Below are positions 34,128 to 62,284 of a DNA stretch of 64,000 nt, piece by piece. Location: positions 1-64,000 of the IMG/VR virus record IMGVR_UViG_3300005077_000012. One strand, given 5' to 3'. Position numbers and translations under genes: made by a program. Position 1 is the first letter of the stretch. Each line of letters begins with the position of its first letter. The notes under the pieces are model-generated. The model worked only from the letters and a program-made list of their open reading frames with translations. It made no database searches and was not told the origin of the DNA. This stretch comes from a virus. Lineage: Duplodnaviria; Caudoviricetes.

Positions 34128-34128
34128 G

Positions 34129-35190: not shown

Positions 35191-35194
35191 TTAT

Positions 35195-41915: not shown

Positions 41916-43265
41916 CTACATATTGAGATCATCCAGTGCAGTGATTGACAACGCGGTCTCCACTGCCCGGGATATGTGTTCGTTAAACGACGCCTTGATC
42001 GCCTTTGCAAGCGTGATCGAAGTCGCCAGAGTTGTCGCTGCTGCCGCCGATACAGTCATGCTGTTATCGATCGAATAGTGCGACGTCTGCAACAAAATGT
42101 GAGCATTGAACTGCGCCTTCAGGTCCGTCAGATGTGCGTTAACCGCAGTCTGCGGAGCTCCAACAGCGCTCGCTGACACTGTGTTCGTCGCGTCCGCTGA
42201 TCCGTGCCGCCCCCCGGTAGTGTATACCCGGTGCGCTTCGTACTTCGTTCGGATCGCGTCCGCCATAACCTGTATCTCGGTCCACGTTGCCGCAACACCC
42301 AGATCAGTCGTTGACACGGTGTTTGTCGTATCAGCAGTCCCTGACACGGTTCCCAGAGCACTCGCGGATACCGCGTTCGTTGAGTCCGCTGCTCCGTGTA
42401 CCGACCCTGCAGTCAATACCCGGTGCGCTTCGTACCCGGTCCGGATCGCGTCCGCCATGTCCGCGATGTCCTGCCACGCTGCGTCAGACGCCAGATCGGT
42501 CGCTGAAACCACGTTAGCAGTATCCGCTGCCCCGTGTACAGACCCGGCAGTCGTCCCGCAGTGTGCGTTGAACTGTGCCTTGATGTCGTTCAGGAGAGCC
42601 ACCGCGCTCTCCTTTGTCGTCATGTCAGCAACAGTCACCGCGTTCGTTGCGTCAGCCCCACCATGCTCACCGCCTGCGACCAAAACCCGGTGCGCCTCGT
42701 AATCCGCCTTCAGCTCGTTAACCAACGCCAGAGCGTTCGTCAGGATCGTCGACGTACCGTGAGACTCCGTGTCTGCGCAGTGCGCATTGAAATCAGCCTT
42801 GATCTCGTTCAAGAGCGTAATCGCACTCGCCTTGCTGGATACCGCAGACGCCGACACAACATGAGTCGAGTCCGCCGCTCCGTGACACGCAGGCGACCCG
42901 GATACCAGTACCCGGTGCGCATTGTAATCAGTCTTCAGCTCATCCGCGAGCGTCTTGATCTTCGTATACACCGACTTCGAGGTCGTCACGTTGGTACTGT
43001 CCGCCGCAGGATGATACGATGCCGATGCGATGTGCGTCGCATACGACAGCTCCAGAGCCTTTTCGAGATCAATAACAGTTTCGAGGTCACCATCCAAAGG
43101 GTCTGCGGTGGTGACCTCATCCGCTGTATCGTCTGTTATGTGCGGAGCAGTCCCGGAGAAGACGTGCGACAAGAGTGCGCTCACCGCTGCAGTCAGGCTG
43201 TCGATCAGAGCCACGACATCCTTCATGAGCGGATCACCGATTGTCATTCTGTCTCTCAGGTTCAT
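41916..43265 (-). CDS. His-repeat capsid-associated protein (long paralogue)
   Basis: About 8 repeats of [YF]xxH-x(5-10)-H[GP]xAD. Confidence 0.65.
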   Translation of the reverse strand: MNLRDRMTIGDPLMKDVVALIDSLTAAVSALLSHVFSGTAPHITDDTADEVTTADPLDGDLETVIDLEKALELSYATHIASASYHPAADSTNVTTSKSVYTKIKTLADELKTDYNAHRVLVSGSPACHGAADSTHVVSASAVSSKASAITLLNEIKADFNAHCADTESHGTSTILTNALALVNELKADYEAHRVLVAGGEHGGADATNAVTVADMTTKESAVALLNDIKAQFNAHCGTTAGSVHGAADTANVVSATDLASDAAWQDIADMADAIRTGYEAHRVLTAGSVHGAADSTNAVSASALGTVSGTADTTNTVSTTDLGVAATWTEIQVMADAIRTKYEAHRVYTTGGRHGSADATNTVSASAVGAPQTAVNAHLTDLKAQFNAHILLQTSHYSIDNSMTVSAAAATTLATSITLAKAIKASFNEHISRAVETALSITALDDLNM

Positions 43266-43274
43266 GATGCCCCC

Positions 43275-44201
43275 CTATGCCAGCTCGTCGAGTGTGCTCA
43301 CCGTCAGTGCCGCTTCGCTCGCCATGCTGATGTGATCGTTGAACGCCGCCTTGATGGCCGCCGCCAGCGTCACGGACGTCGCAAGTGTGGTCGCCGCCGC
43401 AGCGGTGACCTTCATGCTGTCATCCTTGACGTAGTGCGATGTCAACAGGATCATGTGCGCGTTCAGGTCCGCCTTGAGCTCGGTCAGATACGCGTTCACG
43501 ACGGTCTGTACCGATCCAACGGCCCCTGCAGTAACCGCATTTGTTGAGTCTGCGCCACCGTGGACGGAGCCTGCAGTCAGAACGCGGTGCGCTGCGTACT
43601 TCGTCTTCAGATCGTCCGCCATTGCCTGTATCTGCGACCATGTTGCCGCCGATGTGAGATCGGCCAGCACACACGGGTTCGTCGTGTCCGCAGCACCGTG
43701 GCAGCTTGTCACGTTCGCGCAGTGCAGATTGAACATCGTCTTGATATCATTCAAGAGAGTAATCGCAGTCGCTTTGTTTGACACTGCCGCTGCAGTCACC
43801 GTATTCGCATCGCCGCTTCCGGCGTGAACCGATCCCGACGTAAATACGTGGTGCGCATTGTACTGAGTCTTCAGATCGTCCGCGAGGGCCTTAACCTTCG
43901 CGTACGTCGTTGTCGCCGTCAGCGTGTTCGTCGTGTCTGCGGCTGAGTGGTACGTGGTCGACCCTATGTGTGCAACATAGGCAACATCGAGCGCGTGTTC
44001 CAGATCAGCCACATCATCGAGGTCATCATCAGCAGGATCAGCGACAGTCACTGTGTTCACACTGTCACTGACCTTGTGCGGATTCTCGCCGACGAATACG
44101 GTTTCTGACAGGGCGTTGACGGCTGAAATCAGCTCGTCAAGGATAGGGATCAACGCTTGCGTCAGCGAGTTCCCCATTGTAAGCCTGTCTCGTAAACTCA
44201 T
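43275..44201 (-). CDS. His-repeat capsid-associated protein (short paralogue)
   Basis: About 5 repeats; termini alignable with 41916-43265; AAGGAGG RBS right after the MCP. Confidence 0.65.
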   Translation of the reverse strand: MSLRDRLTMGNSLTQALIPILDELISAVNALSETVFVGENPHKVSDSVNTVTVADPADDDLDDVADLEHALDVAYVAHIGSTTYHSAADTTNTLTATTTYAKVKALADDLKTQYNAHHVFTSGSVHAGSGDANTVTAAAVSNKATAITLLNDIKTMFNLHCANVTSCHGAADTTNPCVLADLTSAATWSQIQAMADDLKTKYAAHRVLTAGSVHGGADSTNAVTAGAVGSVQTVVNAYLTELKADLNAHMILLTSHYVKDDSMKVTAAAATTLATSVTLAAAIKAAFNDHISMASEAALTVSTLDELA

Positions 44202-44234: not shown

Positions 44235-45620
44235 TTAGAACCAGCCGAGAGTCGAAGGAGCAACGTTCTTAATCCTGATGTGCTGCACGCCCTTCTTCAC
44301 TGCCATTGTCCCGAAGAGAAGCATGAGGAACGGATACACGGCCGCGTTGGTCGGGTACAGATCGAACTTCATCATCGGAAGGAACTGCGCCCACTCGATC
44401 GCGTCGTACATCGGGTCCATCGTCAGCATGAACACATCCGAACATCCCGGAAGGTTGCTGTTGTAGTCGTAGACGTCTCCGGTGGTTGCCGGAGCTGCCG
44501 TGGTAAACGCGTACCGGACAGTCGCACCAGTCACGCCACCCTTGATCGACCGATAAATCTTGATACCAGTCGATGCCGGGGAACCGTTGGTAATGTTGAA
44601 GATGACGCGATCGCCAGCAGCAACCCCAGTCACGATCTGCTCGGCAGTCGCCGTACCATCACCGTACTTGTTGACGCCGACGAGCTTGTACACATAGTCG
44701 CCAGCGTCAGTCGACGCAAACTCAGAGCTTGCGTGTGTGGTATGAGTCACCGAGTTGACTGTGAGGGCACCGGGCCTGCTTGCGGTAATCGACGACGCTG
44801 AGGGAGTTGATCCTTCAGCAATGAAGATGTCCGCGCGGAGCTTCGGGGTACCGAACGGAGTCGGATAATCCTCGAATACGGTGCTACCCGCGTTTGCGCT
44901 CCCGGGAGTAAACCGGATGCGGTCCCTGAGCATCCTTTGAACGTCTGCCATGACCATTGTCGAGCAGAAGAGATCGGTCACCTTACCGAATGACTCGCGG
45001 ATGTTCCGGGCACCGAGCTCGATCTTGTTGACGAAGTCCGCGCTGGTGGCGTCCTTGCCTCTGAGGTCGAGAACGTTGGTTGACGGTATCTGAGCGATCA
45101 GACCGTCAGGCTGCTCGGCAACGATTGAGCTGTCCCCGTAAAACAGGGCCTTCTCAAGGTTCCGAATGATCCAGAGCGCGCCTGCGTTTTTCTCCAGAGC
45201 CATCGCGTCTTCGATCATGTTCGAGACGCTGGCCTGCAGCGTAACCTTCCTGAGAGTCTGAAGGTACTTCGCAGTCGCATACGCGCGGGCGATCGTCTGT
45301 TCGCCTTCGATTGAGTCGCCACCTTCAGCAACCCACGCGCCGTCGTTTGCACCGACGTCGGTGCGCTTGTCCCACTGGTGGACCGGCGACTTGATCGGTT
45401 GTTTTTTGAGTCTCTGAAAGAGAACCGCGTCTTCCTGTGAGTGCAGGACGTTGACAAGAGTCGAGTCCAGACTCTCAGGGATGAGTGCCCGGCCACCGGT
45501 GAACGCCGCAGCGTCAACACCGGAACCAGCAGAGAGGGCCTTGCTGAGGTAATCCAGAGTCTCCTCATTCGCCCGGGAAAAACCCTCGTAGCCGAGGTCT
45601 AATTGATTGAGAATATCCAT
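44235..45620 (-). CDS. Major capsid protein
   Basis: 461 aa; KAL.AG.G...GGRAL..ESLD..L N-terminus reminiscent of SPO1/Twort-like MCPs; follows protease and scaffold. Confidence 0.88.
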   Translation of the reverse strand: MDILNQLDLGYEGFSRANEETLDYLSKALSAGSGVDAAAFTGGRALIPESLDSTLVNVLHSQEDAVLFQRLKKQPIKSPVHQWDKRTDVGANDGAWVAEGGDSIEGEQTIARAYATAKYLQTLRKVTLQASVSNMIEDAMALEKNAGALWIIRNLEKALFYGDSSIVAEQPDGLIAQIPSTNVLDLRGKDATSADFVNKIELGARNIRESFGKVTDLFCSTMVMADVQRMLRDRIRFTPGSANAGSTVFEDYPTPFGTPKLRADIFIAEGSTPSASSITASRPGALTVNSVTHTTHASSEFASTDAGDYVYKLVGVNKYGDGTATAEQIVTGVAAGDRVIFNITNGSPASTGIKIYRSIKGGVTGATVRYAFTTAAPATTGDVYDYNSNLPGCSDVFMLTMDPMYDAIEWAQFLPMMKFDLYPTNAAVYPFLMLLFGTMAVKKGVQHIRIKNVAPSTLGWF

Positions 45621-46307: not shown

Positions 46308-47153
46308 CTATCCTCCAAAATAATTTTGTATTGTAGGCAATTTTCTTGTGATATATTGTATCAGCTCTGCTGATATGTTCGACGGGTACCCCCGGGACAG
46401 GATGAACTCCATCACGTCGTTATACGACTTGACCTTCCCGCTGGTGATCGCCGCCAGTAACGCGTCAAACACCCGACGGAGCTCCCCGTACGGGATCGAG
46501 TAGCCCTGCGCGTTGAACGTATCGCTCAGCTCCGATCCCTGTAAACTCTCCGGGGTCAACGCGCGCCCCCCGGTAAACGCCTCCGCATTGACCCCATCGC
46601 CTGCCATGAGGGCCTTCGCGAACTGCGCGAACGGGATGATCGAAACATGACCGAGCGTGCCGTCATTGACCGGCTTGTGTGTGATCGCGGTCTCATCCCA
46701 GATCACACGCATTATCATCCCCTTGACACCACCGGCGGACCCCTTCACTTTTTGGATTATTCCGCCGCCCACCGACGCACCGAGCTTCTTCGCCCCGGAC
46801 AGGATATTCTGCCAGAGACCCTGCGAAATCTTGTTCTCTTTATACAGGAACCCTTTTACCAGTGTTTCATTCCGGTCCGTAAATGCGACGTCACTCGGCT
46901 CGCCTATGATGTATTGAGGATCGTGAATCTGCTTGTGCTTGTGGTCCCACGACAGGACGCCGTGTGTCAGATAGTAATCTGCCGCCTCCTTCAGGGCTTT
47001 ACAGAAAACCACCTCAGAGTCCTGATCACGACTCTCATTCGACGCCTGCAGGTACACGTTCCACTTGCCGTCCTCCTCGACACCCTTAACAAGGGCCGAC
47101 GCAAACGGAGAGTAAAACTGATCGCCACCCGCTGCCTGTATTGTCCTGCTCAT
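46308..47153 (-). CDS. Prohead protease
   Basis: ASNESRDQDSE, SWDH, GEP, LGASVGG, AIT..PVN motifs of phage prohead serine proteases. Confidence 0.8.
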   Translation of the reverse strand: MSRTIQAAGGDQFYSPFASALVKGVEEDGKWNVYLQASNESRDQDSEVVFCKALKEAADYYLTHGVLSWDHKHKQIHDPQYIIGEPSDVAFTDRNETLVKGFLYKENKISQGLWQNILSGAKKLGASVGGGIIQKVKGSAGGVKGMIMRVIWDETAITHKPVNDGTLGHVSIIPFAQFAKALMAGDGVNAEAFTGGRALTPESLQGSELSDTFNAQGYSIPYGELRRVFDALLAAITSGKVKSYNDVMEFILSRGYPSNISAELIQYITRKLPTIQNYFGG

Positions 47154-47263: not shown

Positions 47264-47446
47264 TCACAGTCCCCGATGGAGCTTGCCGCACCGGCGGCAC
47301 TTCACCTCGATGATAGACCCTGACGACTTATAAAGAACCTTGTACAATAAGGCCCCGCAGTCGGGACAATTCACATCATCCGTATCGGGGCGTCTTACAA
47401 CTAACTTGTGCTTAATATAGCCAACTTCCCGTTGTTTGTCAACCAC
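47264..47446 (-). CDS. Com-like zinc-finger protein (start uncertain)
   Basis: VNCPDCGALLYKV....GSIIEVKCRRCGKLH matches the Mu Com pattern C..C..LL....IEIKC.RC. Confidence 0.6.
   Translation of the reverse strand: MVDKQREVGYIKHKLVVRRPDTDDVNCPDCGALLYKVLYKSSGSIIEVKCRRCGKLHRGL
47414..47442 (-). promoter_or_regulatory. Sigma70-type promoter upstream of capsid operon
   Basis: TTGACA (47437-47442), 17 bp, TATATT (47414-47419). Confidence 0.75.
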
Positions 47447-47447: not shown

Positions 47448-47906
47448 TTATTCGACCTCGGACTGTAACGCATCCGAGACAGCGTCTGCAAAATTCCTCG
47501 AAACGCCCTCCAGCTCCTCGACCGCAGCCTCAAGATCGGCCTCGGCCTGCGCCTCGATCGGGGCCGTCAGGTGCTCGGGAATACCGAGGTCCTTCGGCTC
47601 CGTCAGGTCAGAGGTCCCCTTCAACATCCCGTCAACCTCCTCCCGGGTCTTCAGCCCGAGACGGACGGCCGCATACTTACTCCACTTCTCAGAATTCGCC
47701 GGGTCGTAGAAAACAACCGTCAGCGATCGCGACCCGTCATCGAAGTAACACTCCACGCCATTCCCGTACGAGTCAGACTTGAAATACGGACAGGCCCCGC
47801 ACTCCACGTTCAAAAACTCTTGTGTCAACTTGACGATCTTGTCGACATGGAAGCAGTACACCTGCCCCGACGCATCCGCCAGATTGATATGGTTCGTCCT
47901 TGCCAT
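47448..47906 (-). CDS. Hypothetical Cys-containing protein
   Basis: 152 aa, GGGAGG RBS, C..CP.F...G.EC.F motif, acidic tail. Confidence 0.65.
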   Translation of the reverse strand: MARTNHINLADASGQVYCFHVDKIVKLTQEFLNVECGACPYFKSDSYGNGVECYFDDGSRSLTVVFYDPANSEKWSKYAAVRLGLKTREEVDGMLKGTSDLTEPKDLGIPEHLTAPIEAQAEADLEAAVEELEGVSRNFADAVSDALQSEVE

Positions 47907-47917: not shown

Positions 47918-50809
47918 CTACTTAAACGATACGTCGACCCACGCCACCGGCACGATCGCCTTCGGGTTGCGCACACACCACTCATCATGCTGCAGCGGAT
48001 TGCCGACCCCCGTATAACTCATAGACATCCCCTTCTTCCCGTATATTGTATCCCACTGAGAATCGTCCCGCTCACGGACGTGATCCCCGGGAGAGACTTT
48101 CCCCATCGACGTCCGGCACTGGAGCATAACCCCGGAACCGCTCCGGGAGAATGTCCCGGCCACGTACTGCGCGCTCTTCGAGCTCGACTTCGCGAAGTAG
48201 ATACCATCCCCGAGCAGACGCCCGTTCTTCGCCGAACCGACCCGCATCCCGCCTTTAATGATACTGGCCCCGGCCTGAAAGTCCGTTCCGTGGTACAGGT
48301 ACTGCTGATTGTCCTTTGCGTTCTCAATCGCTTTGTAGTCCCCGTAATAGTCGTGGTACATGACCTCCATGACCGCATTGACCTGCAACCGGTCTGAACT
48401 GTACCCGGACGACTGGTGACTCCAGTCCGCCTTGATCTTGTCCATCCACTCCTTCTTCCCGGAGTCGCCCTTCCCTTTCAGGACGATCGTCGGCATGGTC
48501 CGGTTCCCCTTCGTCTTCATTCCCATACTGATCGCGAGCTGTTCGGTTCTGATACCCTTGATCGCCGTGTGGTAGGCGTCTGACCCCAGCATGAGCTGAT
48601 CCTTCTTCACTGGATTGTTCGGTGCGTGCGGTTTCAGACGACCCCAGCTCCACTCCGGGATAACCCGGGACTTCTTCGCCAGAGACCGCACGTTCCAGTT
48701 TGCACCGACCGCATACATCAGACTGGCCGCAGCAACGCCCTGAACGTACTGTGCATTGTACCGGTGATACTCAGACACTGACGCAACCGTCGTGTGGAAC
48801 TTTCCCCGCAACAGGTTTTTTCTTACCGACTCATCGGTCTTCCCGAACTCTATCGCCGTACCAGACCGGTCCTTCTTCCACCCACCATACCCCTTGCTCG
48901 ACGAACGCCACCGCCGCGTCGACGGACGAACGGCAGTGCTCATCTTCTTACCCATGTAATACTTGACAAGGCCCATTGACCCCGGCATCGCGTCGCCGTA
49001 ATCCTTGAACCGGACATCAAAATTCACGACCGAGTTTGAGTACCGTCGATCGCTATCCCGCACCGCGCCGGTACATATTCGCTCCAACCCATTATCCAAA
49101 TCTACCAGAGAGTACATCTCCAGAGACATAGCATCTCGATACGGTGTAAACAAGTTCTTCACCGCCTGCATGGTAGACTTCTCGTTGATTGGATACTTCC
49201 CCAACGTCCTGCCCGCATCGATGATCGAGTCAAAATACTCCATCCCTTTCCCTACATATCCACCGGTATTCGGATAGGAGACGTTGATCCCGTTATTCCA
49301 CTTCACGGTCTTCGCGCGCATCATACTCTTCAGATCGTTCGCAATATCACGCCACGTTGCCTCAGGGTTCAGATGCACCTTTTTACTAACCCCGTTACCC
49401 CGCGCGACCGCTCCGAGCTCAACGTAGTCCCGTGACTGCAACCACGAATCTACGGAGTACGCCGAGTCCGGGACAACCACATACTTCTGCAGGAACGCAC
49501 TGATCGCCGGGTACTTCTTCCGAAGGGACTCCCCGGCAGCCTTCAGATCGTCATAACTGTACTGCTTCACCGGACCCGAATACGATGACCCAGACCATCC
49601 CGTATTCGCCACCTTCCCGTACTTCTCAAGCCACGGTTTGATAACCTTCTCACCATAGTCCGGATGCAATGCGCCCATTACAAAAGACGTGTACGTTTCA
49701 GAATCCCAATGCTGGTGTGAATTATAAACAACATCATCGATACCCAGCACCGTAAAAAACTCTTGTACCTTCGACGGCAGGTCCTTGTAAACGTCCCTCC
49801 AACGCTCGGTCACAGCAAGCAACTCCGCTCCCGGAATGATCGTGGAGACCAGTGCCCCCGGGAGCCGGTCAAGACTCTGCGTCCCCCGCAGAGAATAATC
49901 CAGCTCGCCCAGCTTCTCCAGCAGGCGCTTGTCATTTTCTTGCGCCTTCAGCAGGTTGATCCACCGCTGTGCAACCACCTGCGACTCCTCAACCTCACGA
50001 TCAACGGCCGCATCGATAGCGCCCTGATTATATCCGTACCAGTTCTTCTGGACATACTCCGTAACGCGCTTCTTGTATGCTGCGGTCTTCGCCTCCGCCA
50101 GAAACTCCTCCATCTTCGCCTGCACCTCTTCGAGAAACAGCGGGTCCTCCAGCCACTTTCCATCGGAGCCCATCGGTATATCCGGGGCGATCTTCCCGAA
50201 CTCGGTCTGCTGCTCCTTCGTCATCTTGAATATGTTGTCAAGGTTCTTCGACACATACTCCTCGGCCTCCTTGTTCAAGCAGAGCACACCCGTGATATCA
50301 CACAGGTCCCGGGCATCATCGCTGGCCTCACGCCAGTAGAGCTGGTGCTTCTTCGGTGCCTTGTCCAGCTCGGCGTCAGAGGGCCGATCGGAAGACACCG
50401 GGCTCGCCTGCCCGGACTTGCGCTTCTCTTCCTCCTCCTTCTTCTTTTTCTCCATGTTGTCTTTCATCTTGCCCAGACGTTTCTTGCGGGCCTGCTCGTC
50501 TTCGTATGCCTTGACGTCCGCAGGCGTGACCATGCCGTCGTACACCCACTTGCCGTTTGCGTCCTTCCGGACCCACTGCGCGTGCTTCGTCCCGAACCCG
50601 TGTATCTTCCGGGTCCCGATCGGGAGCGGAGCCCCTTTCCGCAGCGTTTCGAGAAAAATTACAAGGCGCGCCTTACTTATCCCGGCCATGCGCTTGTATA
50701 CTCCCATCACATAGGCGTAGTCGTCACCGCGCCCCTCCCGGGCGGCGGCCTCCTTTGCTTTCTCCCACTTCGCCTCGTCGACCGGCTTCCCGTGTATCTT
50801 CTTCGGCAT
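47918..50809 (-). CDS. Large head-associated protein with C-terminal PARP-like ADP-ribosyltransferase
   Basis: YLYHGT, GRLLGDGIYFAKSSSKSAQY, HDEW (H-Y-E triad); ATG 50809 with GGAGG RBS; N-terminal tag module. Confidence 0.85.
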   Translation of the reverse strand: MPKKIHGKPVDEAKWEKAKEAAAREGRGDDYAYVMGVYKRMAGISKARLVIFLETLRKGAPLPIGTRKIHGFGTKHAQWVRKDANGKWVYDGMVTPADVKAYEDEQARKKRLGKMKDNMEKKKKEEEEKRKSGQASPVSSDRPSDAELDKAPKKHQLYWREASDDARDLCDITGVLCLNKEAEEYVSKNLDNIFKMTKEQQTEFGKIAPDIPMGSDGKWLEDPLFLEEVQAKMEEFLAEAKTAAYKKRVTEYVQKNWYGYNQGAIDAAVDREVEESQVVAQRWINLLKAQENDKRLLEKLGELDYSLRGTQSLDRLPGALVSTIIPGAELLAVTERWRDVYKDLPSKVQEFFTVLGIDDVVYNSHQHWDSETYTSFVMGALHPDYGEKVIKPWLEKYGKVANTGWSGSSYSGPVKQYSYDDLKAAGESLRKKYPAISAFLQKYVVVPDSAYSVDSWLQSRDYVELGAVARGNGVSKKVHLNPEATWRDIANDLKSMMRAKTVKWNNGINVSYPNTGGYVGKGMEYFDSIIDAGRTLGKYPINEKSTMQAVKNLFTPYRDAMSLEMYSLVDLDNGLERICTGAVRDSDRRYSNSVVNFDVRFKDYGDAMPGSMGLVKYYMGKKMSTAVRPSTRRWRSSSKGYGGWKKDRSGTAIEFGKTDESVRKNLLRGKFHTTVASVSEYHRYNAQYVQGVAAASLMYAVGANWNVRSLAKKSRVIPEWSWGRLKPHAPNNPVKKDQLMLGSDAYHTAIKGIRTEQLAISMGMKTKGNRTMPTIVLKGKGDSGKKEWMDKIKADWSHQSSGYSSDRLQVNAVMEVMYHDYYGDYKAIENAKDNQQYLYHGTDFQAGASIIKGGMRVGSAKNGRLLGDGIYFAKSSSKSAQYVAGTFSRSGSGVMLQCRTSMGKVSPGDHVRERDDSQWDTIYGKKGMSMSYTGVGNPLQHDEWCVRNPKAIVPVAWVDVSFK

Positions 50810-50834
50810 GGCTATACCCCTCCAGTAATCTTGA

Positions 50835-51968
50835 TCATGCGCCCGCCTGCTTTGCCATCGCAGCGTCGAGCATATCATAGTATTTCTTCATACCCGGCGT
50901 ATACCGGGTCCATGTACACCTGCAGTGCGGGTGTTGCGTCCCGGCAGCAACCCACCACTCCCGGGCCTTCCGTCCAAAATTGTTCTTACCCGGCCAGATC
51001 GCGGTATACCGGGTCCCGTCAACCTCTATCGTATCATCACCACCGGACGGGGCCGCATCCAGCAGCACCACGATCCGTCCGTTGATGTGTGTGGCACAGA
51101 ACGTACAGGCCCCCGGCCCGGACACCCCACGCATGAACACGAACTCATCCGGAGACGTCACCTTCTCGGCCACCAGATACCCGTTATTAAAATTCGTCGC
51201 GGTCTCGGTCTCCGCGATCCTGCGCCAGTCCCGGTTGAGTGTTGAGAACGTATCGAACAGCTTCCGCTCGGTCTCCCGGGCCGTCAGGCGGTTCTTCTGC
51301 GCGTCCAGTATGGACGACACCACCGCCCGGCGCGCGCTGTCCGATATATCCTGTATCAACTCCCCGGTATGCACTTCGGAGAAGTCCCTAATGTTCCGGT
51401 AGACCTCGTCGGCCGTCAGCTTCTTTACCTCGGCGTCGACAGCAGGTTTCAGGTCAGTATACGTCTTGCTGATCTGGTCCTCGACCGGCATCCCCTGTAA
51501 TATCTTACCCAACGCCATCGCCCGAAGGACCAGAGACTGCTCGACCTCACCGAACAGGTACCCGAAAACACTGTCCAGATCGTGTGCAATCACCTCCCAC
51601 TCCGCCCGGGTCAGGGCCTGCCCGGTCGACGGGTTTATGTACGTCGTCCCGTTCAGGATGAACGGATCATCCCCCACGGCCTTGCGAAATTCATCGAAAT
51701 GGTCCCCCATCCCCTTCGCGACATCCAGCCTCAACCACTTCGTCGTAATCTCAGTCAGGACCCGCTGCAGCCCCGCCCGCACCTGATCCCGCAGAATATC
51801 GCTGAGCTCCTGCAGGGCCGGGTAGGGCGTCGGCTCGGTTTTCTCGGTATGGTTGTGTGCAACCTCGGCCGGGACCTTCAGGGCCTTCGACAGGGCCTCG
51901 ACGACTGCCCGGAGCTTCTGCTCCGCCTTGTCTTCCGGATTGTGTATCTCAATTATGATCTTTTCCAT
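50835..51968 (-). CDS. MuF / SPP1 gp7-like head morphogenesis protein
   Basis: RRIAETET...FNNG, C.FC, HPHCRC.W motifs. Confidence 0.85.
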   Translation of the reverse strand: MEKIIIEIHNPEDKAEQKLRAVVEALSKALKVPAEVAHNHTEKTEPTPYPALQELSDILRDQVRAGLQRVLTEITTKWLRLDVAKGMGDHFDEFRKAVGDDPFILNGTTYINPSTGQALTRAEWEVIAHDLDSVFGYLFGEVEQSLVLRAMALGKILQGMPVEDQISKTYTDLKPAVDAEVKKLTADEVYRNIRDFSEVHTGELIQDISDSARRAVVSSILDAQKNRLTARETERKLFDTFSTLNRDWRRIAETETATNFNNGYLVAEKVTSPDEFVFMRGVSGPGACTFCATHINGRIVVLLDAAPSGGDDTIEVDGTRYTAIWPGKNNFGRKAREWWVAAGTQHPHCRCTWTRYTPGMKKYYDMLDAAMAKQAGA

Positions 51969-52088
51969 AGCCCTCGTATTCGCTTCCAGAGGCCCTGTAC
52001 GGGGCCCGCGCAGGCTCCGGGTAGGTTACCCCTCCCCGGGCAGATCGGACGCTGCCCCACGCAAAATAACGGCAGTAGCGGCCGACCC

Positions 52089-54440
52089 TCAGAACAGTCT
52101 GTGCCGGAGCCCGACCACATACGCCAGACGCCGGATCGCTTTCAGCAGTTTCGGCCCGAAATGCTTTTTCAACAGGCCCTCGAACTTCCCGTCCTCAAAC
52201 ATCGCATAGGTCGGATCGACCTCCGGGAACCCCCAGCCGAACGGATTGTCCGCCGCGTCCCCCACCGCATCCATACGCTCGTCCGTCGTCGTATACTCCG
52301 GCTGCTTCGCCTTGTACCGGATAAACTGGTCAAAGGTCCGGGCGAACACCTCGTTGACGTCGCCCCAATACCGGGACCGCTTCGAGTAATAGTCGGAGTG
52401 TGTCTGCTTGCGGAATGAGTGTACGGTAACCTCGGACAGGTGCTGTGAATACATCTCGAACGCTCGGTCCACAACCTTTGCCGGTGCAAAACGTACCCGG
52501 TCAACGATCGATTTCAGATCGTCCACAGAATAGACTCCCTTCGTCTCCGATACGATCGCAGGACCATGCTTGTCCGGGTCATTCAACGCATTGCGCAGCG
52601 TCGAAAGGAACTCATCCGGCGTAACGGTTCCGTACCGATCATCCGCCTGATTAGCGTTGTGGAGCATGGCACGCAGGCTCGGCTCAACGATCTCAACGAA
52701 CTTCAGGACATCCAGACCCTTACGCCCGGCAAGGTCCGGGTGCGCCGTCAGGTACCCGCCGATTTCCGACAACGCCACGGCAGACGACTGATCGATGTAC
52801 GTCTTGAACGCCGCATGAGACGGATTGAATGTCTCCTTGATCTTCTGCTCAAGACCAGACGCCTTGACCCACTCCTTGAACTCGTCGACCAACACCTTCC
52901 CGCCCCGGTAAAAAAAGTAATGTCCCGCTTCGTGTACGATCGCCCCCGGGTACGACGGGGAGATATTCAACGAATGGTCCTTCTCGACGTAGAACCCGGC
53001 CGCCTTCTTCGACGCCTTCGCAATCCGCAGGATCATCTTCTTCCCGTCTGACGGAACGTAGTCCTTGAAATTGACCACGGACGAGATCGTCGAGAACACC
53101 TTGAACAATGCCCGCAGGCTCGGGGCCGACAGCTTCGCCTCCCTCCCGGGGATGATCGCATCGGTTGTGATCTCCAGACCGATCTCATCCCGGAACGCGG
53201 TGACGAGCTTCGCAATCTTCGGATCAGTCGCCATCAGGTGATCTTTATACCCGGCGGTCCCCTTGACGTACTTCATGATCCGCTTCTTTGAACTCTCATC
53301 CGCGAACTTGTTCAGGACCCCCTCGATCTTGTCGTACGGTATCGGAATGTACGGCAGAACGAGGATCGAACGCCGCGTCGGATTGACATCGGAGAACTGG
53401 AGTCCAACCCGGCCGTCAGTCATCACCATCGAACCGGTTATCCCCAACTTCCCGATCGGCTCACGCTGCATCGCATTGTAGGATTGCCTCAACTGCGCAG
53501 CGGCGGCAGTCGCATAACGCAGATTGGATATGGCGTTCCTCGAAGGAACATCCAGACCGGACTGCACACTCTCAAGGGCCATCAGGTCCTGATACAAGGT
53601 TCCCGCCGCGCCGATCGACTTCGAGTCCAACAGGCCGTCCTCGAAGTCCTTGAGCTGCTTCCACCCGGTATAAAAGTCTGCCGCGTCCGGCGGCTGCACT
53701 TTCTCCCGAACCGCGTCCGGGAGCGCGTCGAGTTTTTGCTGCAGGCTCTCCAGAACGGCCTTCAGCGCATACTCCATCGACGGAGCCGACTCATAATCCC
53801 ACGTTGCCGACATCGCGGCCTCGGCGTCCAGCCCGGGAACCTTCTTTTCCTCAGCCTTCTTCGGAACCACCTTCGGTTTCTCCGGCTTCGGCCGCGTCCA
53901 CATCGCCACCGACGGCCGCCCCATAATCTTCTCATCATCGTCCAACTGCACCCGGTCCCACGTCACGATCTCAGCGTTGGCGTCCTCCTTGCTCAGGCGG
54001 AAGCGTTCCTGCGCCTCCTCCAGTGTCAGGTTGTCATACTCGGTAACCGGGCTGCCGTCGACGTGCACAACGAACACACGGTGCGTGTTCGCACGCTTCG
54101 CCTTCGGAGCATCGGGCTTCTTCACCTCCGGGGCCTTCGACCCTTCCATGAGCTTGTGCTTCAGTACATATTTGACGATATCGGTGTCGCCCTTCAGGTC
54201 GTGCCCGACTTCGGCCTTCACCTTCTCGATGATCTCTTTGCGTCGGTCCGCAGTGAGCTTCGCCCACCAGTCGAGAACCTTTGCACGCTCAGGCCACGGC
54301 CGGGCACCCTCATGCACCCCATCAACGACCTCAACCCACTTCTTATCCGACGCCTTCCGATACTTCCGACCCTTCCATTCCCGGATCGTACCAACCGGGT
54401 ACGCCTTCCCTTTGATCATCAGTCTATAGATTTTTAGCAC
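52089..54440 (-). CDS. Head-associated zincin metallopeptidase / LPD1-like polyvalent-type protein
   Basis: IVHEAGH (HExxH) and downstream EVFARTFDQF; N-terminal tag module; GTG start with GGGGAG RBS. Confidence 0.7.
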   Translation of the reverse strand: MLKIYRLMIKGKAYPVGTIREWKGRKYRKASDKKWVEVVDGVHEGARPWPERAKVLDWWAKLTADRRKEIIEKVKAEVGHDLKGDTDIVKYVLKHKLMEGSKAPEVKKPDAPKAKRANTHRVFVVHVDGSPVTEYDNLTLEEAQERFRLSKEDANAEIVTWDRVQLDDDEKIMGRPSVAMWTRPKPEKPKVVPKKAEEKKVPGLDAEAAMSATWDYESAPSMEYALKAVLESLQQKLDALPDAVREKVQPPDAADFYTGWKQLKDFEDGLLDSKSIGAAGTLYQDLMALESVQSGLDVPSRNAISNLRYATAAAAQLRQSYNAMQREPIGKLGITGSMVMTDGRVGLQFSDVNPTRRSILVLPYIPIPYDKIEGVLNKFADESSKKRIMKYVKGTAGYKDHLMATDPKIAKLVTAFRDEIGLEITTDAIIPGREAKLSAPSLRALFKVFSTISSVVNFKDYVPSDGKKMILRIAKASKKAAGFYVEKDHSLNISPSYPGAIVHEAGHYFFYRGGKVLVDEFKEWVKASGLEQKIKETFNPSHAAFKTYIDQSSAVALSEIGGYLTAHPDLAGRKGLDVLKFVEIVEPSLRAMLHNANQADDRYGTVTPDEFLSTLRNALNDPDKHGPAIVSETKGVYSVDDLKSIVDRVRFAPAKVVDRAFEMYSQHLSEVTVHSFRKQTHSDYYSKRSRYWGDVNEVFARTFDQFIRYKAKQPEYTTTDERMDAVGDAADNPFGWGFPEVDPTYAMFEDGKFEGLLKKHFGPKLLKAIRRLAYVVGLRHRLF

Positions 54441-54441
54441 G

Positions 54442-55224
54442 CTACTCCCCCATCAGATCAGACATCAGCTTCTCCATCTCTCGGTCCAGCCCGCGCAGTT
54501 CCTCCGCCGTCGTCTGTGAAACCTTCCGCGCATGATACAGGATTTCCCGCAGACCCATCTGTATCTTCGTTACCTGCTCCATGTTCGCATCGAATAACTC
54601 CTCCCGGGTCACATCCGCCGCGTAGAAGTACAGATCGTTCAGGATGGAACTCGCCAGCGCAATCAACGACTCGACCTTCCCTTCACTGAAGGTCCGGAAC
54701 TCCACCTCGTCAAACTCCTCCATCGGGTGCTCCCGAAACATATTCCGAACCTCACGCAGCAACTGAGTCCGCAATTCAACCAACACCAGACGGTAGATAT
54801 TAAACGAGTCACACAGAGTCGCGTGCTGGATGGACTTCCGCTTCAACAGGTCGATGTATATCCCCTGCATCAACAGCAGCAACTGATCACCACGCTCCTC
54901 GGCATAACTCATCTGCCCGCGTAACAGCAGCACGTTCCTGATCTCCAGCTTCCGGGTCAAGAGCTTGACCGTCTGGTTCAGCATCGTCACAACATCCCGG
55001 GAATGAGGGCACATCGCGTGCGGGCTCTTGACAGGCTTCGCCTTCGCCCTTCCCGGAACCCCGTCACCACCGATGTCCAGCTCCTTACCGCCGCTCACGA
55101 TCCGCAGACCCCGACGGACGATCAGGATCGCAGAGTACCCCAGCATGAACGTCAGGCCGGACGCGAATACCATCTGAAACCACTTCGGCAAGTCATTGAG
55201 CCAGTCTATAAATGTCGTAAACAC
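54442..55224 (-). CDS. Membrane-anchored helical protein, hypothetical
   Basis: N-terminal hydrophobic helix FQMVFASGLTFMLGYSAILIV. Confidence 0.65.
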   Translation of the reverse strand: MFTTFIDWLNDLPKWFQMVFASGLTFMLGYSAILIVRRGLRIVSGGKELDIGGDGVPGRAKAKPVKSPHAMCPHSRDVVTMLNQTVKLLTRKLEIRNVLLLRGQMSYAEERGDQLLLLMQGIYIDLLKRKSIQHATLCDSFNIYRLVLVELRTQLLREVRNMFREHPMEEFDEVEFRTFSEGKVESLIALASSILNDLYFYAADVTREELFDANMEQVTKIQMGLREILYHARKVSQTTAEELRGLDREMEKLMSDLMGE

Positions 55225-55260
55225 CGAAACCCCCCGCGCACGATCCCGAACGCCGTCACG

Positions 55261-58002
55261 TTAAATCCGGACCCACTGATCCGCTGCTTCTTTCCTGTAA
55301 CTCACCCCGGCGCGGGAACGCTGCGTCCCGATCGGGAGTGCTCCGCCCCGGTTGAGCTGCCAGTAGCGCTCCTCACGCTTGATACTCTTCGCGAGATCGT
55401 CCGGGAGCTCCTGCGACTTCTTCGCTTTCGCCTCACGGAACTTCTTCGCCACGAACGTCCCGGCGGCGTCAATGCTGGAGAACTCGCCCTGACTCTCCCC
55501 ACCACGCTCCACGGACACTTTACCGGAACCGTCGGTGTGCTTCTTCACGGACCACCACTCACCGTCAGGACCTTTTACTGTACCCGATGAATCTCCTTCC
55601 ATACTCTCAAGGATACCCTCGGCCTCGGCGGACAACCCGTCGTCCCCGGCAGGCTTCGCATCGGACTCATGTCTCTCTCCAGACGACACACCGTAGTTCT
55701 TCACATACTTCTCCACCGCCTCTTTAACAGTCTTTGACTGCGCCGTCGTCGAAAGGTAATGGAGCCGCTTTGTATCCGGGTCCTTATACCCCAGATCGAT
55801 CTGTCCGTGATTGGTCTTCCACCCCTTGATTGTATCCAGATTGATCTGAGGGTCTTTGACTCCCAGCTCCTTCAGCTTGTTTAAAATCGGACGTGCGTTA
55901 TACTTCGACCCACCACCAGCAGCGGGCTTGCCCTCTTTCACAGGCTCCCACTTCCCGGCAGCGACCTTCTTGTACTTCTTCCCCTTCCAGTCACGGATTG
56001 TCCCGGGCGGAAGTCCTCGGCCTTTGTTCAGCCAGACCACCGTGTCCTCCTTGCGCAGCTCCTCGATCGCCTTGCTCATGTCTTCCGTTTCGAGAAATTT
56101 TGCAGGCGTCTCTGCAACCTCAAGCTCCGCATCCGGAGTCGTCGTCCCCAGCCCGATATTCCGCTTCGCGTTCAACGTCAATTTCCACTCGTTCATAAAT
56201 TTCCTCGCCTTAAATAGTTTGCCCTGCCCTTCTGCCTCCATCGCAGCATCCCGGAGCTTCGACAGGTTTTTCTTCGCCTCTATATGTGTTTGTATCGCCT
56301 TCAGATCATCCGGATCAAGCTCCGACCGCAATGCCGCTTCAGGGACTTCCTTCCATCCCCCGGTCCTCGATGAATGATCATAGTACTCGGCCTCGACTTT
56401 GCCCTCGGCAGTCACCCGGTACCCATTCGCGTCCAGTATGTCCTTGATTGACTCAGGGTCCGCATCTGCCTTCGCCTGATCGTACCGCTCCTGCGCCGAC
56501 CCGCCGCGCTTCTTCTCCGCACGCTTCCCGGACTCATGCTTCTCGCGCTCGGCAGCCAGCTCCTTCTCCATCCGGGCCTTGTCATCCGCATCGCGCTTCG
56601 CCTGCGCTGCGTCGCGCTCGGCCTGCGCCTTCTTACCCGCCTCGTATTCCCCGGGAAGCTCGTCGATCCTCTTGCTGACCTTGTCCGCACCCTGCTTCTC
56701 GACGATCTTACCCAGCGCATTGATCGCCTTCTGCCTGCCCCCCAGCTCCCGGACAACCAGCATCCCGGTCTTCTTGTCAACCAGAGCGTACCCGGCCTTC
56801 CCGGACGGGAACGTCATGTCAAACCCCCAGAACTCCCGGTCAAGGTCCTTCACCTTCGCGGGTTTCATCGACGTACCCTCGGGGACCTTCACCACATTCC
56901 CCATGTGATCCGACACCTCGGTCGGGGCCTTCTCACCTTTCGCTGCGCCCTTGTCCGATTTCTTCACGGCAGCACCGGCCTGCTTGCTTGCCTCGGCAGC
57001 CCCGGCCACACCGCCGCCTTCGCTCGTCGCCTCGACGGTCTTCGCCGCGCCCTTGACGGCGGCCTCACCTTTGCCCGCAGCCTCTTTGATCCCACCCGCA
57101 ATGTCCTTAACCGAATCAGATATGCTCTGTGAACTCGACGTCGACGCCTGCTTCTTTAACCGCTCCAGCATCGCGTCCAGATTGGACTTGTCCTCACTGT
57201 CCGGCAGGTTCTTAATGTCCGACTTCAGCTTCTCATACGTCGCATCCCCGAGCTTCCCGCCCGTCTTCGGGGCCGCATCAGAATCACGCCCTCCCGTACG
57301 CACCGCCTTTACCGCAGCCTTCACCTGCTCATCAGAGGCCCCGGGCTTCAACTTCCCCGTAATTTTGTTAAGTGTATCCACGTCGAGTCCGATATAGTCA
57401 TTGCTCGCAGAATCCTCCGCGCTCCACGCCCGCATAACACGGTTCTCCAAAACCGTCTTTTCACCTTTATCCATCTGGGGCTCCCCAGCCTGCGCATCAC
57501 CTTCAGGCTCGCCCTTCGCTGCACCCTTGCCACTCTTCACGCGCACCCAGCCGGTGTCTCCCTTGCGGTACTTCTTTCCCTTCCATTCCCGGATAGTCCC
57601 GACCGGCAACGCCTTCCCCTTCTCCAGAGACTCCAGCTCTCGCAGACTCTTCGCTGCACTCTCCATCCTATCAAGACGGGTGTAATAGTCCGGTATCTCG
57701 GCCAGATGATCCCGCGCAATCTTCTCGGCCAGCTTCGGGTCATCGGTGTGCTCGGCCTCGACCTCGATCCCACGCTTCAACTGCTCCGGGTCCGGGCTCG
57801 TCTTCGCGGTCTGACTCCGGCCCTTACCAATGAAAGACCCCAGAATCGCATAGATCATCTCCTCGACCCCGTGCTTGTTCCACCCATGCGCCTCGGCCCA
57901 CTCATGGACCTCGTAGTCCTCCGGCTTCGGGTTCTCACTCAAGAATCGCTCAACCTGCAGCCTGCTCGGGCGTGCCTTATCGAGTTTTTGTACGCGTATC
58001 AT
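55261..58002 (-). CDS. Large Lys/Ala-rich head-associated protein with DUF5661-like N-terminal domain and three tag modules
   Basis: G..VE.EH..D...A.KIA.DHL.E.PDYY.RL motif (family recalled from memory); three P.GT modules. Confidence 0.65.
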   Translation of the reverse strand: MIRVQKLDKARPSRLQVERFLSENPKPEDYEVHEWAEAHGWNKHGVEEMIYAILGSFIGKGRSQTAKTSPDPEQLKRGIEVEAEHTDDPKLAEKIARDHLAEIPDYYTRLDRMESAAKSLRELESLEKGKALPVGTIREWKGKKYRKGDTGWVRVKSGKGAAKGEPEGDAQAGEPQMDKGEKTVLENRVMRAWSAEDSASNDYIGLDVDTLNKITGKLKPGASDEQVKAAVKAVRTGGRDSDAAPKTGGKLGDATYEKLKSDIKNLPDSEDKSNLDAMLERLKKQASTSSSQSISDSVKDIAGGIKEAAGKGEAAVKGAAKTVEATSEGGGVAGAAEASKQAGAAVKKSDKGAAKGEKAPTEVSDHMGNVVKVPEGTSMKPAKVKDLDREFWGFDMTFPSGKAGYALVDKKTGMLVVRELGGRQKAINALGKIVEKQGADKVSKRIDELPGEYEAGKKAQAERDAAQAKRDADDKARMEKELAAEREKHESGKRAEKKRGGSAQERYDQAKADADPESIKDILDANGYRVTAEGKVEAEYYDHSSRTGGWKEVPEAALRSELDPDDLKAIQTHIEAKKNLSKLRDAAMEAEGQGKLFKARKFMNEWKLTLNAKRNIGLGTTTPDAELEVAETPAKFLETEDMSKAIEELRKEDTVVWLNKGRGLPPGTIRDWKGKKYKKVAAGKWEPVKEGKPAAGGGSKYNARPILNKLKELGVKDPQINLDTIKGWKTNHGQIDLGYKDPDTKRLHYLSTTAQSKTVKEAVEKYVKNYGVSSGERHESDAKPAGDDGLSAEAEGILESMEGDSSGTVKGPDGEWWSVKKHTDGSGKVSVERGGESQGEFSSIDAAGTFVAKKFREAKAKKSQELPDDLAKSIKREERYWQLNRGGALPIGTQRSRAGVSYRKEAADQWVRI

Positions 58003-58240
58003 GTTTCTTGCCTCGCTTTGATTTTTTCATGCTTGAACCTGTATGACTAACGAGTGCCAGAACCTCCGGGATCGGAGAGCACCTGAGACACCCGTAAATA
58101 TAATTCCCAACACCGCCATGCCACGGACCAACTTCCACCCTGAACATCCACTCCCAGCGGAACGAACGCTCACACAACACACACCGTCTCCTCCGAAACG
58201 TGAACACCCTGTGCACCCGGGTCGGCCCACCAGCACGCAC
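57977..58240 (-). CDS. Small CxxC-containing hypothetical protein
   Basis: CVLC...CLRC; start uncertain. Confidence 0.4.
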   Translation of the reverse strand: MRAGGPTRVHRVFTFRRRRCVLCERSFRWEWMFRVEVGPWHGGVGNYIYGCLRCSPIPEVLALVSHTGSSMKKSKRGKKHDTRTKTR

Positions 58241-58506
58241 TACAGGACCTCCATCAATATCCCGCAGTACTGACCCACGTACAGCTCGCGCTCCACCGGT
58301 CCCTCGAACGGGCTATCGTACGTCAAGACCCGCTGCTTGTCCGACTCGACAAGGTCCTCGGGCCCGACCTGATCCCCATCCACATCACAATTCGCTCCGA
58401 CATAAAACGCATCCGGGTCCAGCGTCTCATACCATGCACCCATCCCGATCAGCGTGCGATTTTCCTCGATACCGCGCCAGTACTCCACAATGTTATACGC
58501 CATCAC
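58240..58506 (-). CDS. Hypothetical protein
   Basis: 88 aa acidic ORF with overlapping start/stop coupling. Confidence 0.6.
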   Translation of the reverse strand: MMAYNIVEYWRGIEENRTLIGMGAWYETLDPDAFYVGANCDVDGDQVGPEDLVESDKQRVLTYDSPFEGPVERELYVGQYCGILMEVL

Positions 58507-62231: not shown

Positions 62232-62284
62232 TCGTTTCTCCGATGTGTGTGTAGTGTGTGAGCCTTCCCTCTCTCTCACCATCT

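Follow-up and report, generated by a model that had tools for sequence, protein, structure and literature searches.

A PARP-type ADP-ribosyltransferase gene in the head module of an uncultured myovirus, a candidate for delivery with the phage DNA

Head packaging and injection were predicted for ADP-ribosyltransferases (ARTs) of the H-Y-[EDQ] clade (ART-PolyVal/N4-like) when polyvalent proteins were described by Iyer et al. in 2017 (PMC5512222). In the survey of Iyer, Burroughs, Anantharaman and Aravind 2022, PARP-type domains ('PART') rank with the commonest viral ARTs, head-packaging contexts account for about 44% of phage ARTs, and poly-ADP-ribosylation is already suggested for phage PARTs (PMC9503650). 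Phage PARPs with the H-Y-E triad were noted as early as 2014, and a bacterial PARP with this triad behaves like human PARP1 (PMC4245714). An earlier note on the present DNA had placed the known injected phage ARTs in the R-S-E class, a view that is outdated since H-Y-[EDQ] and PARP-type ARTs have both been predicted to be head-packaged (PMC5512222, PMC9503650). The literature found on phage PARP-type enzymes consists of computational surveys only, with no biochemical characterisation of any of them. Among cultured phages, Bacillus phage YungSlug (MT416612) encodes an 869-aa 'PARP polymerase' (QKE56383.1) in a gene adjoining the portal gene, with a homologue in Nachito. In both, a MuF gene is followed by the PARP gene beside portal, protease and major capsid protein (MCP) genes, and the portal, protease and capsid are distant homologues of those described below. 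The kind of gene considered here, a phage PARP in a head module, has already been predicted, and the present protein adds another example.

The gene comes from an uncultured contractile-tailed phage of 87 kb, whose tail sheath and baseplate genes identify it as a myovirus. The window is the whole stretch of DNA analysed, 64,000 nucleotides from IMG/VR record IMGVR_UViG_3300005077_000012. As the earlier note had stated, the setting is a head cluster, with portal, MuF-like, protease and SU10-type MCP genes around the PARP gene:

60648-62282, portal, a head gene
50835..51968 (-), MuF/SPP1 gp7-like minor head protein with a C-terminal HPHCRC motif, matching PHROG minor head and head morphogenesis families, directly upstream of the PARP gene
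47918..50809 (-), coding sequence of the PARP-domain protein
47448..47906 (-), conserved downstream partner of 152 aa (p152), with a Cys-rich N-terminal half and an acidic tail
47414..47442 (-), sigma-70-like promoter after the p152 gene, matching the consensus at 11 of 12 positions in a consensus scan only
46308-47153, prohead protease, a head gene
44235-45620, SU10-type major capsid protein, a head gene

The coding sequence, taken from the ORF list and its translation, ends with the stop codon at 47918-47920 and specifies 963 aa. Its real start is the ATG at 50809, with a GGAGGGG ribosome-binding site (RBS) 7 nt before it, and the protein-database entry (P0002) likewise has 963 aa; the RBS and the database call favour this form, and the longer ORF starting at 50878 (47918-50878, (-)) was dropped. 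The PARP gene is thus a separate ORF with its own RBS, beginning 26 nt past the MuF stop codon. A frameshift fusion of MuF and PARP was also considered and rejected: the frames differ by +1, the long ORF overlaps by only 44 nt, and a strong RBS and ATG follow the MuF stop.

The position between the MuF-like protein and the prohead protease is kept in three related metagenomic phages (L003, L004 and L005), across which capsid identity goes down to 58%. The order nucleotidyltransferase (NTase), DUF5661 protein, MuF, PARP, p152, protease, scaffold, MCP is the same in L004 and L005, and in L003 from the DUF5661 protein on, where the stretch of L003 covered cuts off a PolyA_pol-domain gene further upstream. 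In L004, L005 and the Bacillus phages L007 and L008, the gene directly preceding the PARP gene is a MuF homologue; a 56-aa ORF separates the two in L003. Homologues of p152 (39-60% identical) occupy the same position in L003, L004 and L005, and p152 matches no family in Pfam or PHROGs. The neighbours of the PARP gene include a DUF5661 protein, a weak LPD1 match, a zincin and a Pol-beta-type NTase; the zincin has a homologue in L005, and only its tag-bearing N-terminus is conserved in L003. Together they form a portal-to-protease block of large enzyme-bearing proteins, in which three other enzymes carry the N-terminal tags described below and no strong terminator was found. The near-consensus promoter may mark the start of a protease-scaffold-capsid unit. 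At the DNA level, the segment 44235-52000 has no match among 50,697 phage records.

The catalytic part of the protein occupies its C-terminus:

47921..48490 (-), PARP-type ART domain, residues 774-963, from Pfam PF00644, VIA-align and Foldseek
48290..48292 (-), codon of His840 of the triad, in YLYHGT
48197..48199 (-), codon of Tyr871 of the triad, in GIYFA
47981..47983 (-), codon of Glu943 at the catalytic Glu position, in HDEW

The PARP-like motifs that had drawn attention to the gene, YLYHGT, GRLLGDGIYFAKSSSKSAQY and HDEW, are all found in the translation of 47918-50878 (-), far beyond what chance would give. The domain had been placed at 47918-48460; the location is right, and the extent falls slightly short of the 47921-48490 that the ART domain spans. 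Pfam assigns the 963-aa protein to PARP (PF00644) with 53.7 bits and an E-value of 2.5e-14, above the curated cut-off of 26.7 bits, and a six-frame scan of the genome gives 57.9 bits. All nine closest relatives scanned, P0003 included, exceed the same cut-off, and the divergent relative P0006 lies below it at 16.4 bits. A single-sequence search of PDB sequences returns PARP3, tankyrase and PARP2, and a five-sequence profile returns PARP3 (7.7e-12) and PARP1 (7.5e-11), PARP3 being the best sequence match. The AlphaFold model, a predicted structure in which pLDDT is mostly 80-92 over the domain, superposes over residues 774-963 on tankyrase-1 (7kkn_A) with Z 19.3 and an rmsd of 2.8 Å for 178 of 207 residues (VIA-align); its best structural matches are tankyrase-1/2 and PARP1/2. 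The Foldseek comparison with PARP catalytic domains that the earlier note had proposed gives PARP1 at E 1.5e-9. Structural alignments to PARP1 catalytic fragments take in 40-60 further residues of the preceding helical body, part of which might mimic the PARP1 regulatory domain.

The assignment to PARP-family ARTs of the H-Y-E type with the Glu retained, made at first from motifs, holds on all these counts. His840 and Tyr871 are placed by HMM alignment to PARP3 and PARP1, His840 being the equivalent of the His in the PARP 'WHGS' motif, and Glu943 is placed by motif pattern and by the structural alignment that reaches residue 963. The pocket residues H840-G841, Y871, K878-S879, Y882 and E943 are present, among them the Gly that follows the His and anchors nicotinamide, the SKS Ser and the second, stacking Tyr. 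Tyr871, Tyr882 and Glu943 are invariant in 17 relatives and in eight phage PARP domains, including those of Bacillus phages, and His840 is nearly so, being kept in 10 of 11 in the alignment. Counterparts of PARP1 K903 and Y907 are kept as Lys and Tyr, and the Ser corresponding to S904 varies to Ala, Val or Thr in some relatives. The His is gone from one relative (P0006/L005), which reads FTSTNF there, so that activity is not universal among the relatives. On sequence and model, the C-terminal 190 residues are a predicted PARP-family (H-Y-E) ART fold with its NAD+-binding and catalytic residues intact.

The R-S-E pattern of the T4 Alt/VIP2 clade is absent, the active site being H-Y-E and all sequence and fold matches being PARPs, and there is no similarity to the DNA-modifying ARTs DarT and pierisin. 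ART-PolyVal (PF18760, H-Y-D) has no match in the Pfam scan of the protein; the corresponding genome scan also gave none, but its control matched nowhere either, and Glu stands here in the third catalytic position, where that family has Asp. PARP is the sole Pfam match in the 963 aa, with neither WGR nor PARP_reg. Word-based searches returned no short stand-alone homologue of the ART domain and no direct fusion to MuF or portal, which for this kind of search is weak evidence. Longer homologues are only proteins with a C-terminal PARP and an unannotated body, and in a scan of genome contigs a relative of the ART domain turned up on one Desulfobacterales MAG contig.

The part of the protein ahead of the domain is organised as follows:

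50678..50809 (-), N-terminal tag of 44 aa, a beta-hairpin and two helices, pLDDT 80-94
50525..50632 (-), basic three-strand module of 28 aa (LPIGTRK...GKWVYDG), residues about 60-95
50417..50524 (-), long Lys/Glu-rich helix, residues 96-131, from model secondary structure, pLDDT and composition
48500..50389 (-), largely helical body, about 630 aa long (residues 141-770), kept within the family in alignments, of no known fold

A disordered linker (residues about 132-140) follows the Lys/Glu-rich helix, outside 50417..50524. The earlier note had found no recognisable family in the roughly 750 aa upstream of the domain. This stands for Pfam and PHROGs, which have no match to the N-terminal 754 residues, for Foldseek against the PDB (best E 1.4), VIA wide (best Z 5.0) and BFVD (best E 0.12), with nothing usable from ESM Atlas; it does not stand for the two short modular tags at the N-terminus.

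The 44-aa tag is common to about 100 cluster representatives, mostly at their own N-terminus, and alone has no match in phage records at 1e-3. Its carriers include prohead proteases (phrog_1028, 4 of 38; phrog_80, three; phrog_3244, two; Peptidase_S78, two), a DarB-like antirestriction protein and InPase, LPD1, DUF5661, Cupin and NTase proteins of the polyvalent-protein network. It also heads proteins of InPase+DUF5661+LPD1, Cupin+LPD1 and SNF2 type, and some carriers are annotated as non-virion proteins (primase, terminase). The 28-aa module occurs in seven copies in the genome, all within 50.5-60.4 kb and only in the four large proteins of the block; an 11-sequence family alignment has G65, R67, K82, W88 and Y90 invariant.

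The function we favour, and hold to be probable though by no means secure, is that of virion cargo: a PARP-type ART packaged in the head, ejected and acting on the host at the onset of infection. Delivery at that stage is a reasonable inference for a protein encoded among head genes, and the model follows the head-packaged, injected phage ARTs of the literature (PMC5512222, PMC9503650); packaging itself is suggested by gene position and shared tags only. On the other side stand the PARP protein's separate ORF, the word-based search that turned up no direct fusion of the ART domain to MuF or portal, and the tag carriers with non-virion annotations. The 44-aa tag and the 28-aa module would serve to load the protein into the procapsid, probably in concert with MuF and portal, and it would then be ejected together with the DNA. 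Within the first minutes of infection it could use host NAD+ to ADP-ribosylate at least one host macromolecule, in the manner of T4 Alt with PARP-type chemistry, possibly for takeover of the host machinery or for disabling a defence. Genome scans found no Macro, ARH or NAPRTase in the phage, and a PARG scan had no match, but its control matched nowhere either. The phage would seem to carry no recognisable eraser of the ADP-ribose mark, so that any removal would be left to host enzymes.

What the enzyme makes, and on what, allows other readings. That it is a true poly(ADP-ribose) polymerase, forming chains on itself or on host proteins in place of single marks, we regard as unlikely. The full H-Y-E triad and the retained equivalents of K903 and Y907 fit such an activity, the best structural matches (tankyrase-1/2, PARP1/2) are chain-forming, the bacterial triad PARP resembles human PARP1 in behaviour (PMC4245714), and chains have been proposed for phage PARTs (PMC9503650). 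The genome, however, yielded no PARG, Macro or ARH (with the reservation on the PARG control), and Pfam found no WGR or PARP regulatory domain in the protein. Moreover, the triad is necessary, not sufficient, and the best sequence match is PARP3; PARP3 and PARP4 have H-Y-E yet are mono-transferases, so poly(ADP-ribose) synthesis does not follow from the triad alone. A nucleic acid could also be the target, either DNA ends, such as the termini of the entering phage genome in protection against exonucleases, or host RNA or DNA. Phosphates at DNA ends are modified by PARP1-3, and RNA ends by several PARPs; the N-terminal modules are strongly basic, the long helix is rich in Lys and Glu, and neighbours such as the nucleotidyltransferase act on nucleic acids. 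Such a target is nevertheless very doubtful, given that Pfam, Foldseek against the PDB and VIA wide recognise no DNA- or RNA-binding domain in the protein and that the top matches are all PARPs, with no likeness to DarT or pierisin. The least probable reading is that of a protein acting mainly as an NAD+ glycohydrolase or toxin that depletes NAD+ for host shut-off or for exclusion of competing phages, or persisting as an inactive structural remnant. Some ART-fold proteins are NADases, the genome scan found no NAPRTase-family NAD+ salvage gene in the phage, and one relative has lost the His; but members of the PARP family are transferases, an NAD+ drain at entry would hurt the phage's own replication, and the strict conservation of Y, Y and E across 17 diverged relatives speaks against decay.

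The time and place of action are a separate matter. The protein might be made late and act in the producing cell without ejection. During assembly it might modify host factors or the phage's own head, portal or terminase proteins, or else it might block a defence that senses the packaging machinery. This alternative, put forward by Iyer et al. for head-linked ARTs (PMC9503650), agrees with co-location among late morphogenesis genes, with no strong terminator having been found in the block and with the conserved 152-aa partner, which could be a regulator. We judge it quite improbable, because the 44-aa tag is common to prohead proteases, which work inside procapsids, and to the DarB-like protein, because the 28-aa module is shared only with other cargo-like proteins, and because adjacency to MuF is kept across very distant phages. 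Ejected cargo remains the preferred reading.

The boldest version of that reading is in our view rather a long shot: a head-delivered bona fide PAR polymerase of a phage without an eraser, which enters the capsid in trans by means of two portable address tags acting with MuF and makes PAR chains in the bacterial cell within minutes of infection. If true, PAR synthesis would for the first time be demonstrated as a phage weapon, along with a modular capsid-loading code. As a test case the protein is a clean one: its triad is intact, its place in the head module is conserved, cultured Bacillus phages have homologous domains, and its two short tags are candidate capsid-loading signals. Knowing its substrate and whether it forms chains would tell whether phages use PARP chemistry at the very start of infection, and would be relevant to the proposal that some viral PARPs originated in phages.

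Compared with known systems, the protein is closest to the PARPs of YungSlug and Nachito, with which it shares a C-terminal H-Y-E PARP domain (32-36% identical over the domain), a large N-terminal body without Pfam match, and a gene next to MuF-like and portal, protease and capsid genes; head packaging is predicted for all of these and for the surveyed PARTs. The N-terminal bodies, in contrast, are unrelated in sequence (no BLAST similarity), the gene order here is portal ... MuF-PARP-p152-protease against MuF-PARP-portal-protease in the Bacillus phages, and only the protein described here has two modular tags and lies in a block with three other tagged enzymes. Tankyrase-1/2 and PARP1-3 have the same ART fold (Z 19, rmsd 2.8-3 Å), the H-Y-E triad, the HG and SKS motifs and the second Tyr, but identity is only about 20%, the setting is a phage, and Pfam recognises no ankyrin, SAM, WGR, zinc-finger or helical regulatory domain in the protein. 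T4 Alt provides the working model proposed here, a head-packaged ART that enters with the DNA and immediately modifies host proteins; it belongs to the R-S-E clade, a different fold subfamily, and its packaging and prohead-protease cleavage are experimentally shown. MuF-toxin fusions of temperate phages likewise couple an effector domain genetically to a MuF head protein, there as a C-terminal fusion, whereas here MuF and effector are two genes, the effector gene having its own RBS and lying 26 nt beyond the MuF stop codon. Polyvalent proteins and ART-PolyVal (PMC5512222) are, similarly, virion-linked and presumably injected enzymatic effectors, and LPD1, DUF5661, InPase, MuF, zincin and Pol-beta-type NTase of their network recur among the neighbours and the other tag carriers. 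ART-PolyVal is an H-Y-D family, unlike the PARP-type H-Y-E enzyme here, and each effector of this block is a polypeptide of its own in which only one catalytic domain is recognisable. Polyvalent proteins are defined by at least two effector domains per polypeptide, and one catalytic domain is recognised in these 963 aa; the protein would therefore work like a component of a polyvalent protein without being one.

The PARP domain sequence forms the 3′ end of the long ORF 47918-50878 (-), in a virus record of 87,219 bp, estimated to be 96% complete (IMG/VR), of which the window is the initial 64 kb. Across the head and tail genes examined, every long gene-like ORF is on the minus strand. The MuF-like gene upstream stops at 50835, GGAGGGG stands seven bases upstream of the ATG at 50809 and the database version of the protein comprises 963 aa; the gene is therefore best read as 47918-50809 (-), with a 963-aa product, and not as the longer ORF. 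Residue numbering throughout follows the 963-aa form. An AlphaFold2 model and alignments divide the protein into five parts:

Residues 1-44 (50678-50809, -): small N-terminal module, confidently modelled; 44-aa tag, MPKxIxGKPVDExKWxKAK...DYAYIMGIYKKM
Residues 60-95: three-stranded basic module LPIGTRK...GKWVYDG, preceded by a disordered linker
Residues 96-131: long Lys/Glu-rich helix
Residues 141-770: body, mostly helical
Residues 774-963: ART domain

The earlier note had read the C-terminus as a PARP-like H-Y-E ADP-ribosyltransferase, and this reading is upheld. The Pfam PARP model PF00644 reaches 53.7 bits in a protein scan (cut-off 26.7) and 57.9 bits in a six-frame genome scan, where the domain is the sole copy. 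All motif residues are found, namely His840-Gly841 (YLYHGT), Tyr871 (GIYFA), Lys878-Ser879 and Tyr882 (SKSAQY) and Glu943 (HDEW). Sequence searches of the PDB return PARP3, tankyrases, PARP2 and PARP1, and a five-sequence profile returns PARP3 at 7.7e-12 and PARP1 at 7.5e-11. The AlphaFold2 model, built from 17 relatives, has a mean pLDDT of 74.6, with the C-terminal domain mostly at 80-92. The Foldseek comparison with PARP domains that the note had proposed gives a match to PARP1 (E 1.5e-9), and VIA-align superposes residues 774-963 on tankyrase-1 (7kkn_A; Z 19.3, rmsd 2.8 Å, 178/207 residues); within the limits of a predicted model, the NAD+ pocket is retained.

Tyr871, Tyr882 and Glu943 are invariant in the alignment of 17 relatives, and His840 is kept by all except P0006, a divergent relative that reads FTSTNF. 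The same residue pattern occurs in eight phage PARP domains, two of them from cultured Bacillus phages. P0006 itself (1173 aa; 10001-13519 of the related metagenomic phage locus L005) has lost the triad His while retaining the Tyr and Glu, and carries a 9-residue insertion in its donor loop; it may be inactive or differ in activity.

The earlier statement that the region before the ART domain has no recognisable family holds for the 630-aa body, but not for the N-terminus, where two short modules were found. The helical body is conserved across the family of the protein: when residues 1-783 were searched exhaustively with HMMER against 1.84 billion cluster representatives, about 15 full-length relatives emerged, and all ten relatives scanned end in a PARP domain (nine above the Pfam cut-off, the divergent P0006 weakly). 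No fold match to the body was obtained by Foldseek in the PDB (best E 1.4), by VIA run exhaustively over 48,161 chains (best Z 5.0) or in BFVD (best E 0.12), and nothing usable emerged from the ESM Atlas, Pfam or PHROGs.

The gene lies in a block that reads, in the direction of transcription:

60648-62282: portal, first gene of the block
Next: 677-aa nucleotidyltransferase (NTase) protein, 913-aa DUF5661 protein, 260-aa protein
52089-54440 (-): 783-aa zincin protein
Next: 377-aa MuF-like protein with HPHCRC, directly before the PARP gene
47448-47906 (-): 152-aa protein, next gene after PARP
47442-47414: predicted near-consensus promoter
Next: prohead protease, scaffold-like protein, SU10-type major capsid protein

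The placement in a phage head cluster proposed earlier is therefore borne out, with the MuF-like gene before and the 152-aa, protease, scaffold-like and capsid genes after. The phage is a myovirus, as its baseplate proteins and a tail sheath (E 1.7e-62) show. The 783-aa protein, which combines a zincin HEAGH, an N-terminal 28-aa module and a weak LPD1 match at residues 687-715, is similar to the metallopeptidase hub of polyvalent proteins. The 152-aa protein has no family match; its N-terminal half holds four Cys, and its C-terminal tail is strongly acidic. It might act as a regulator, confer immunity or form part of the head; homologues (39-60% identity) always come next after the PARP gene in the metagenomic relatives L003-L005, and the Bacillus phages are without it. 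A motif at 46473-46667 and 45402-45545 (-), also common to these three relatives, is possibly a shared site of cleavage or docking. After the capsid gene come two proteins of 308 and 449 aa (41916-44201, -) that are mutual paralogues, and the L003 counterpart of the second is enlarged to 585 aa by extra internal repeats. Further along, G+C falls to 0.42-0.49 at 34001-38000, against about 0.55-0.59 elsewhere, over tail-fibre genes, one of which (35899-37362) has a Peptidase_S74 chaperone domain; this suggests a recently acquired receptor-binding module.

Gene order is kept in the three metagenomic relatives, with capsid protein identities of 58-83%. Conservation extends from the NTase gene through the capsid gene in L004 and L005, and from the DUF5661 protein through the capsid gene in L003, where a truncated PolyA_pol gene lies farther upstream; a clear match to the zincin protein exists in L005 only. 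On a fourth contig, L006, the same ART domain sits on a different 611-aa body, and the phage portal and MuF are related. The pairing of MuF and then PARP spans very distant phages, since it recurs in the Bacillus phages YungSlug and Nachito (Herelleviridae), where a MuF homologue and a small ORF precede an 866-869-aa protein ending in a PARP domain 34% identical to that of the window (annotated ‘PARP polymerase’ in YungSlug), followed by distant homologues of the portal, protease and capsid genes. In L003, the closest relative, the MuF homologue (7780-9831) has 683 aa against 377: its first 364 and last 37 residues match, and about 270 extra residues are inserted or appended ahead of the conserved C-terminal tip.

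Both N-terminal modules are portable. A genome self-search, in which the PARP protein matched the 677-aa protein, revealed the 28-aa basic module. Its pattern, P[IV]GTxR.W.G..Y.K...G.W, has six copies in the whole 87-kb genome, and a seventh was spotted by eye in the 913-aa protein; outside the PARP protein, three lie in the 913-aa, one in the 783-aa and two in the 677-aa protein. All seven fall within 50546-60401 (-), confined to the portal-to-PARP block and found nowhere else in the genome. The 44-aa tag, which has no model in Pfam or PHROG and to our knowledge had not been noted previously, is the only part shared with about 100 further cluster representatives (HMMER), nearly always at their own N-terminus. 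Among 38 carriers with a length of at least 200 aa, head maturation proteases are the most frequent annotation (phrog_1028, 4; phrog_80, 3; phrog_3244, 2; Peptidase_S78, 2); others include one major head protein, one minor head protein, one DarB-like antirestriction protein, and InPase, LPD1, DUF5661, Cupin, S-AdoMet lyase, cytidylyltransferase and PolyA_pol-type NTase proteins. Prohead proteases work in the procapsid interior, and DarB of P1 is packaged in the head and injected. Because its carriers include both types, the tag is likely to be a capsid-internalisation module. In YungSlug, a 115-aa hypothetical protein (QKE56379.1; L007 1220-1564) located just upstream of the MuF-like gene resembles residues 15-71, the tag region (35% identity, E 5e-7, small local BLAST).

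The predicted structure and gene order show that the fold is that of a PARP-type ART, that its catalytic residues are intact and that the gene holds a conserved head-morphogenesis position beside MuF. In the proposed mechanism, the N-terminal tags would carry the protein into the procapsid, from which it would exit along with the DNA, and host NAD+ would be spent at once on ADP-ribosylating host macromolecules. Genome scans for Macro, ARH and NAPRTase-type genes came back empty, so the phage apparently encodes a writer but no eraser; scans for PARG and ART-PolyVal also gave no matches, but their controls were equally silent and these two scans therefore carry no weight. The H-Y-E triad and the acceptor-site Lys and Tyr are compatible with a polymerase. 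However, PARP3 is the top sequence match, mono-transferases also occur among H-Y-E enzymes, and sequence alone is unable to tell mono- from poly-ADP-ribosylation.

The interpretation offered earlier stands in part: the PARP-type ART in a head module is confirmed, while the novelty seen in its contrast with R-S-E phage enzymes is outdated. Phage PARPs with H-Y-E were already on record in Perina et al. 2014 (PMC4245714), and H-Y-D ARTs were described in virion-packaged polyvalent proteins by Iyer et al. 2017 (PMC5512222). PARP-type ‘PART’ domains are among the commonest viral ARTs, about 44% of phage ARTs lie in head-packaging contexts, and poly-ADP-ribosylation by some of them has been suggested (Iyer et al. 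2022, PMC9503650). The finding would be no surprise to the specialist. The literature searched contained no experimental work on a phage PARP, and the protein offers a good opening for testing phage PARP chemistry biochemically for the first time, along with capsid-loading tags. It does not belong to the Alt family, its domain being PARP-type, nor apparently to the ART-PolyVal family, its third catalytic residue being Glu where that family has Asp; it is not a MuF fusion, nor, having a single recognisable catalytic domain, a polyvalent protein. The proposed immediate ADP-ribosylation of the host after injection would resemble the mode of action of T4 Alt. Within the known kind of PARP-type ART effectors encoded in phage head modules, the protein counts as new at the family level, with an unexplained body of 630 aa and a pair of portable tags.
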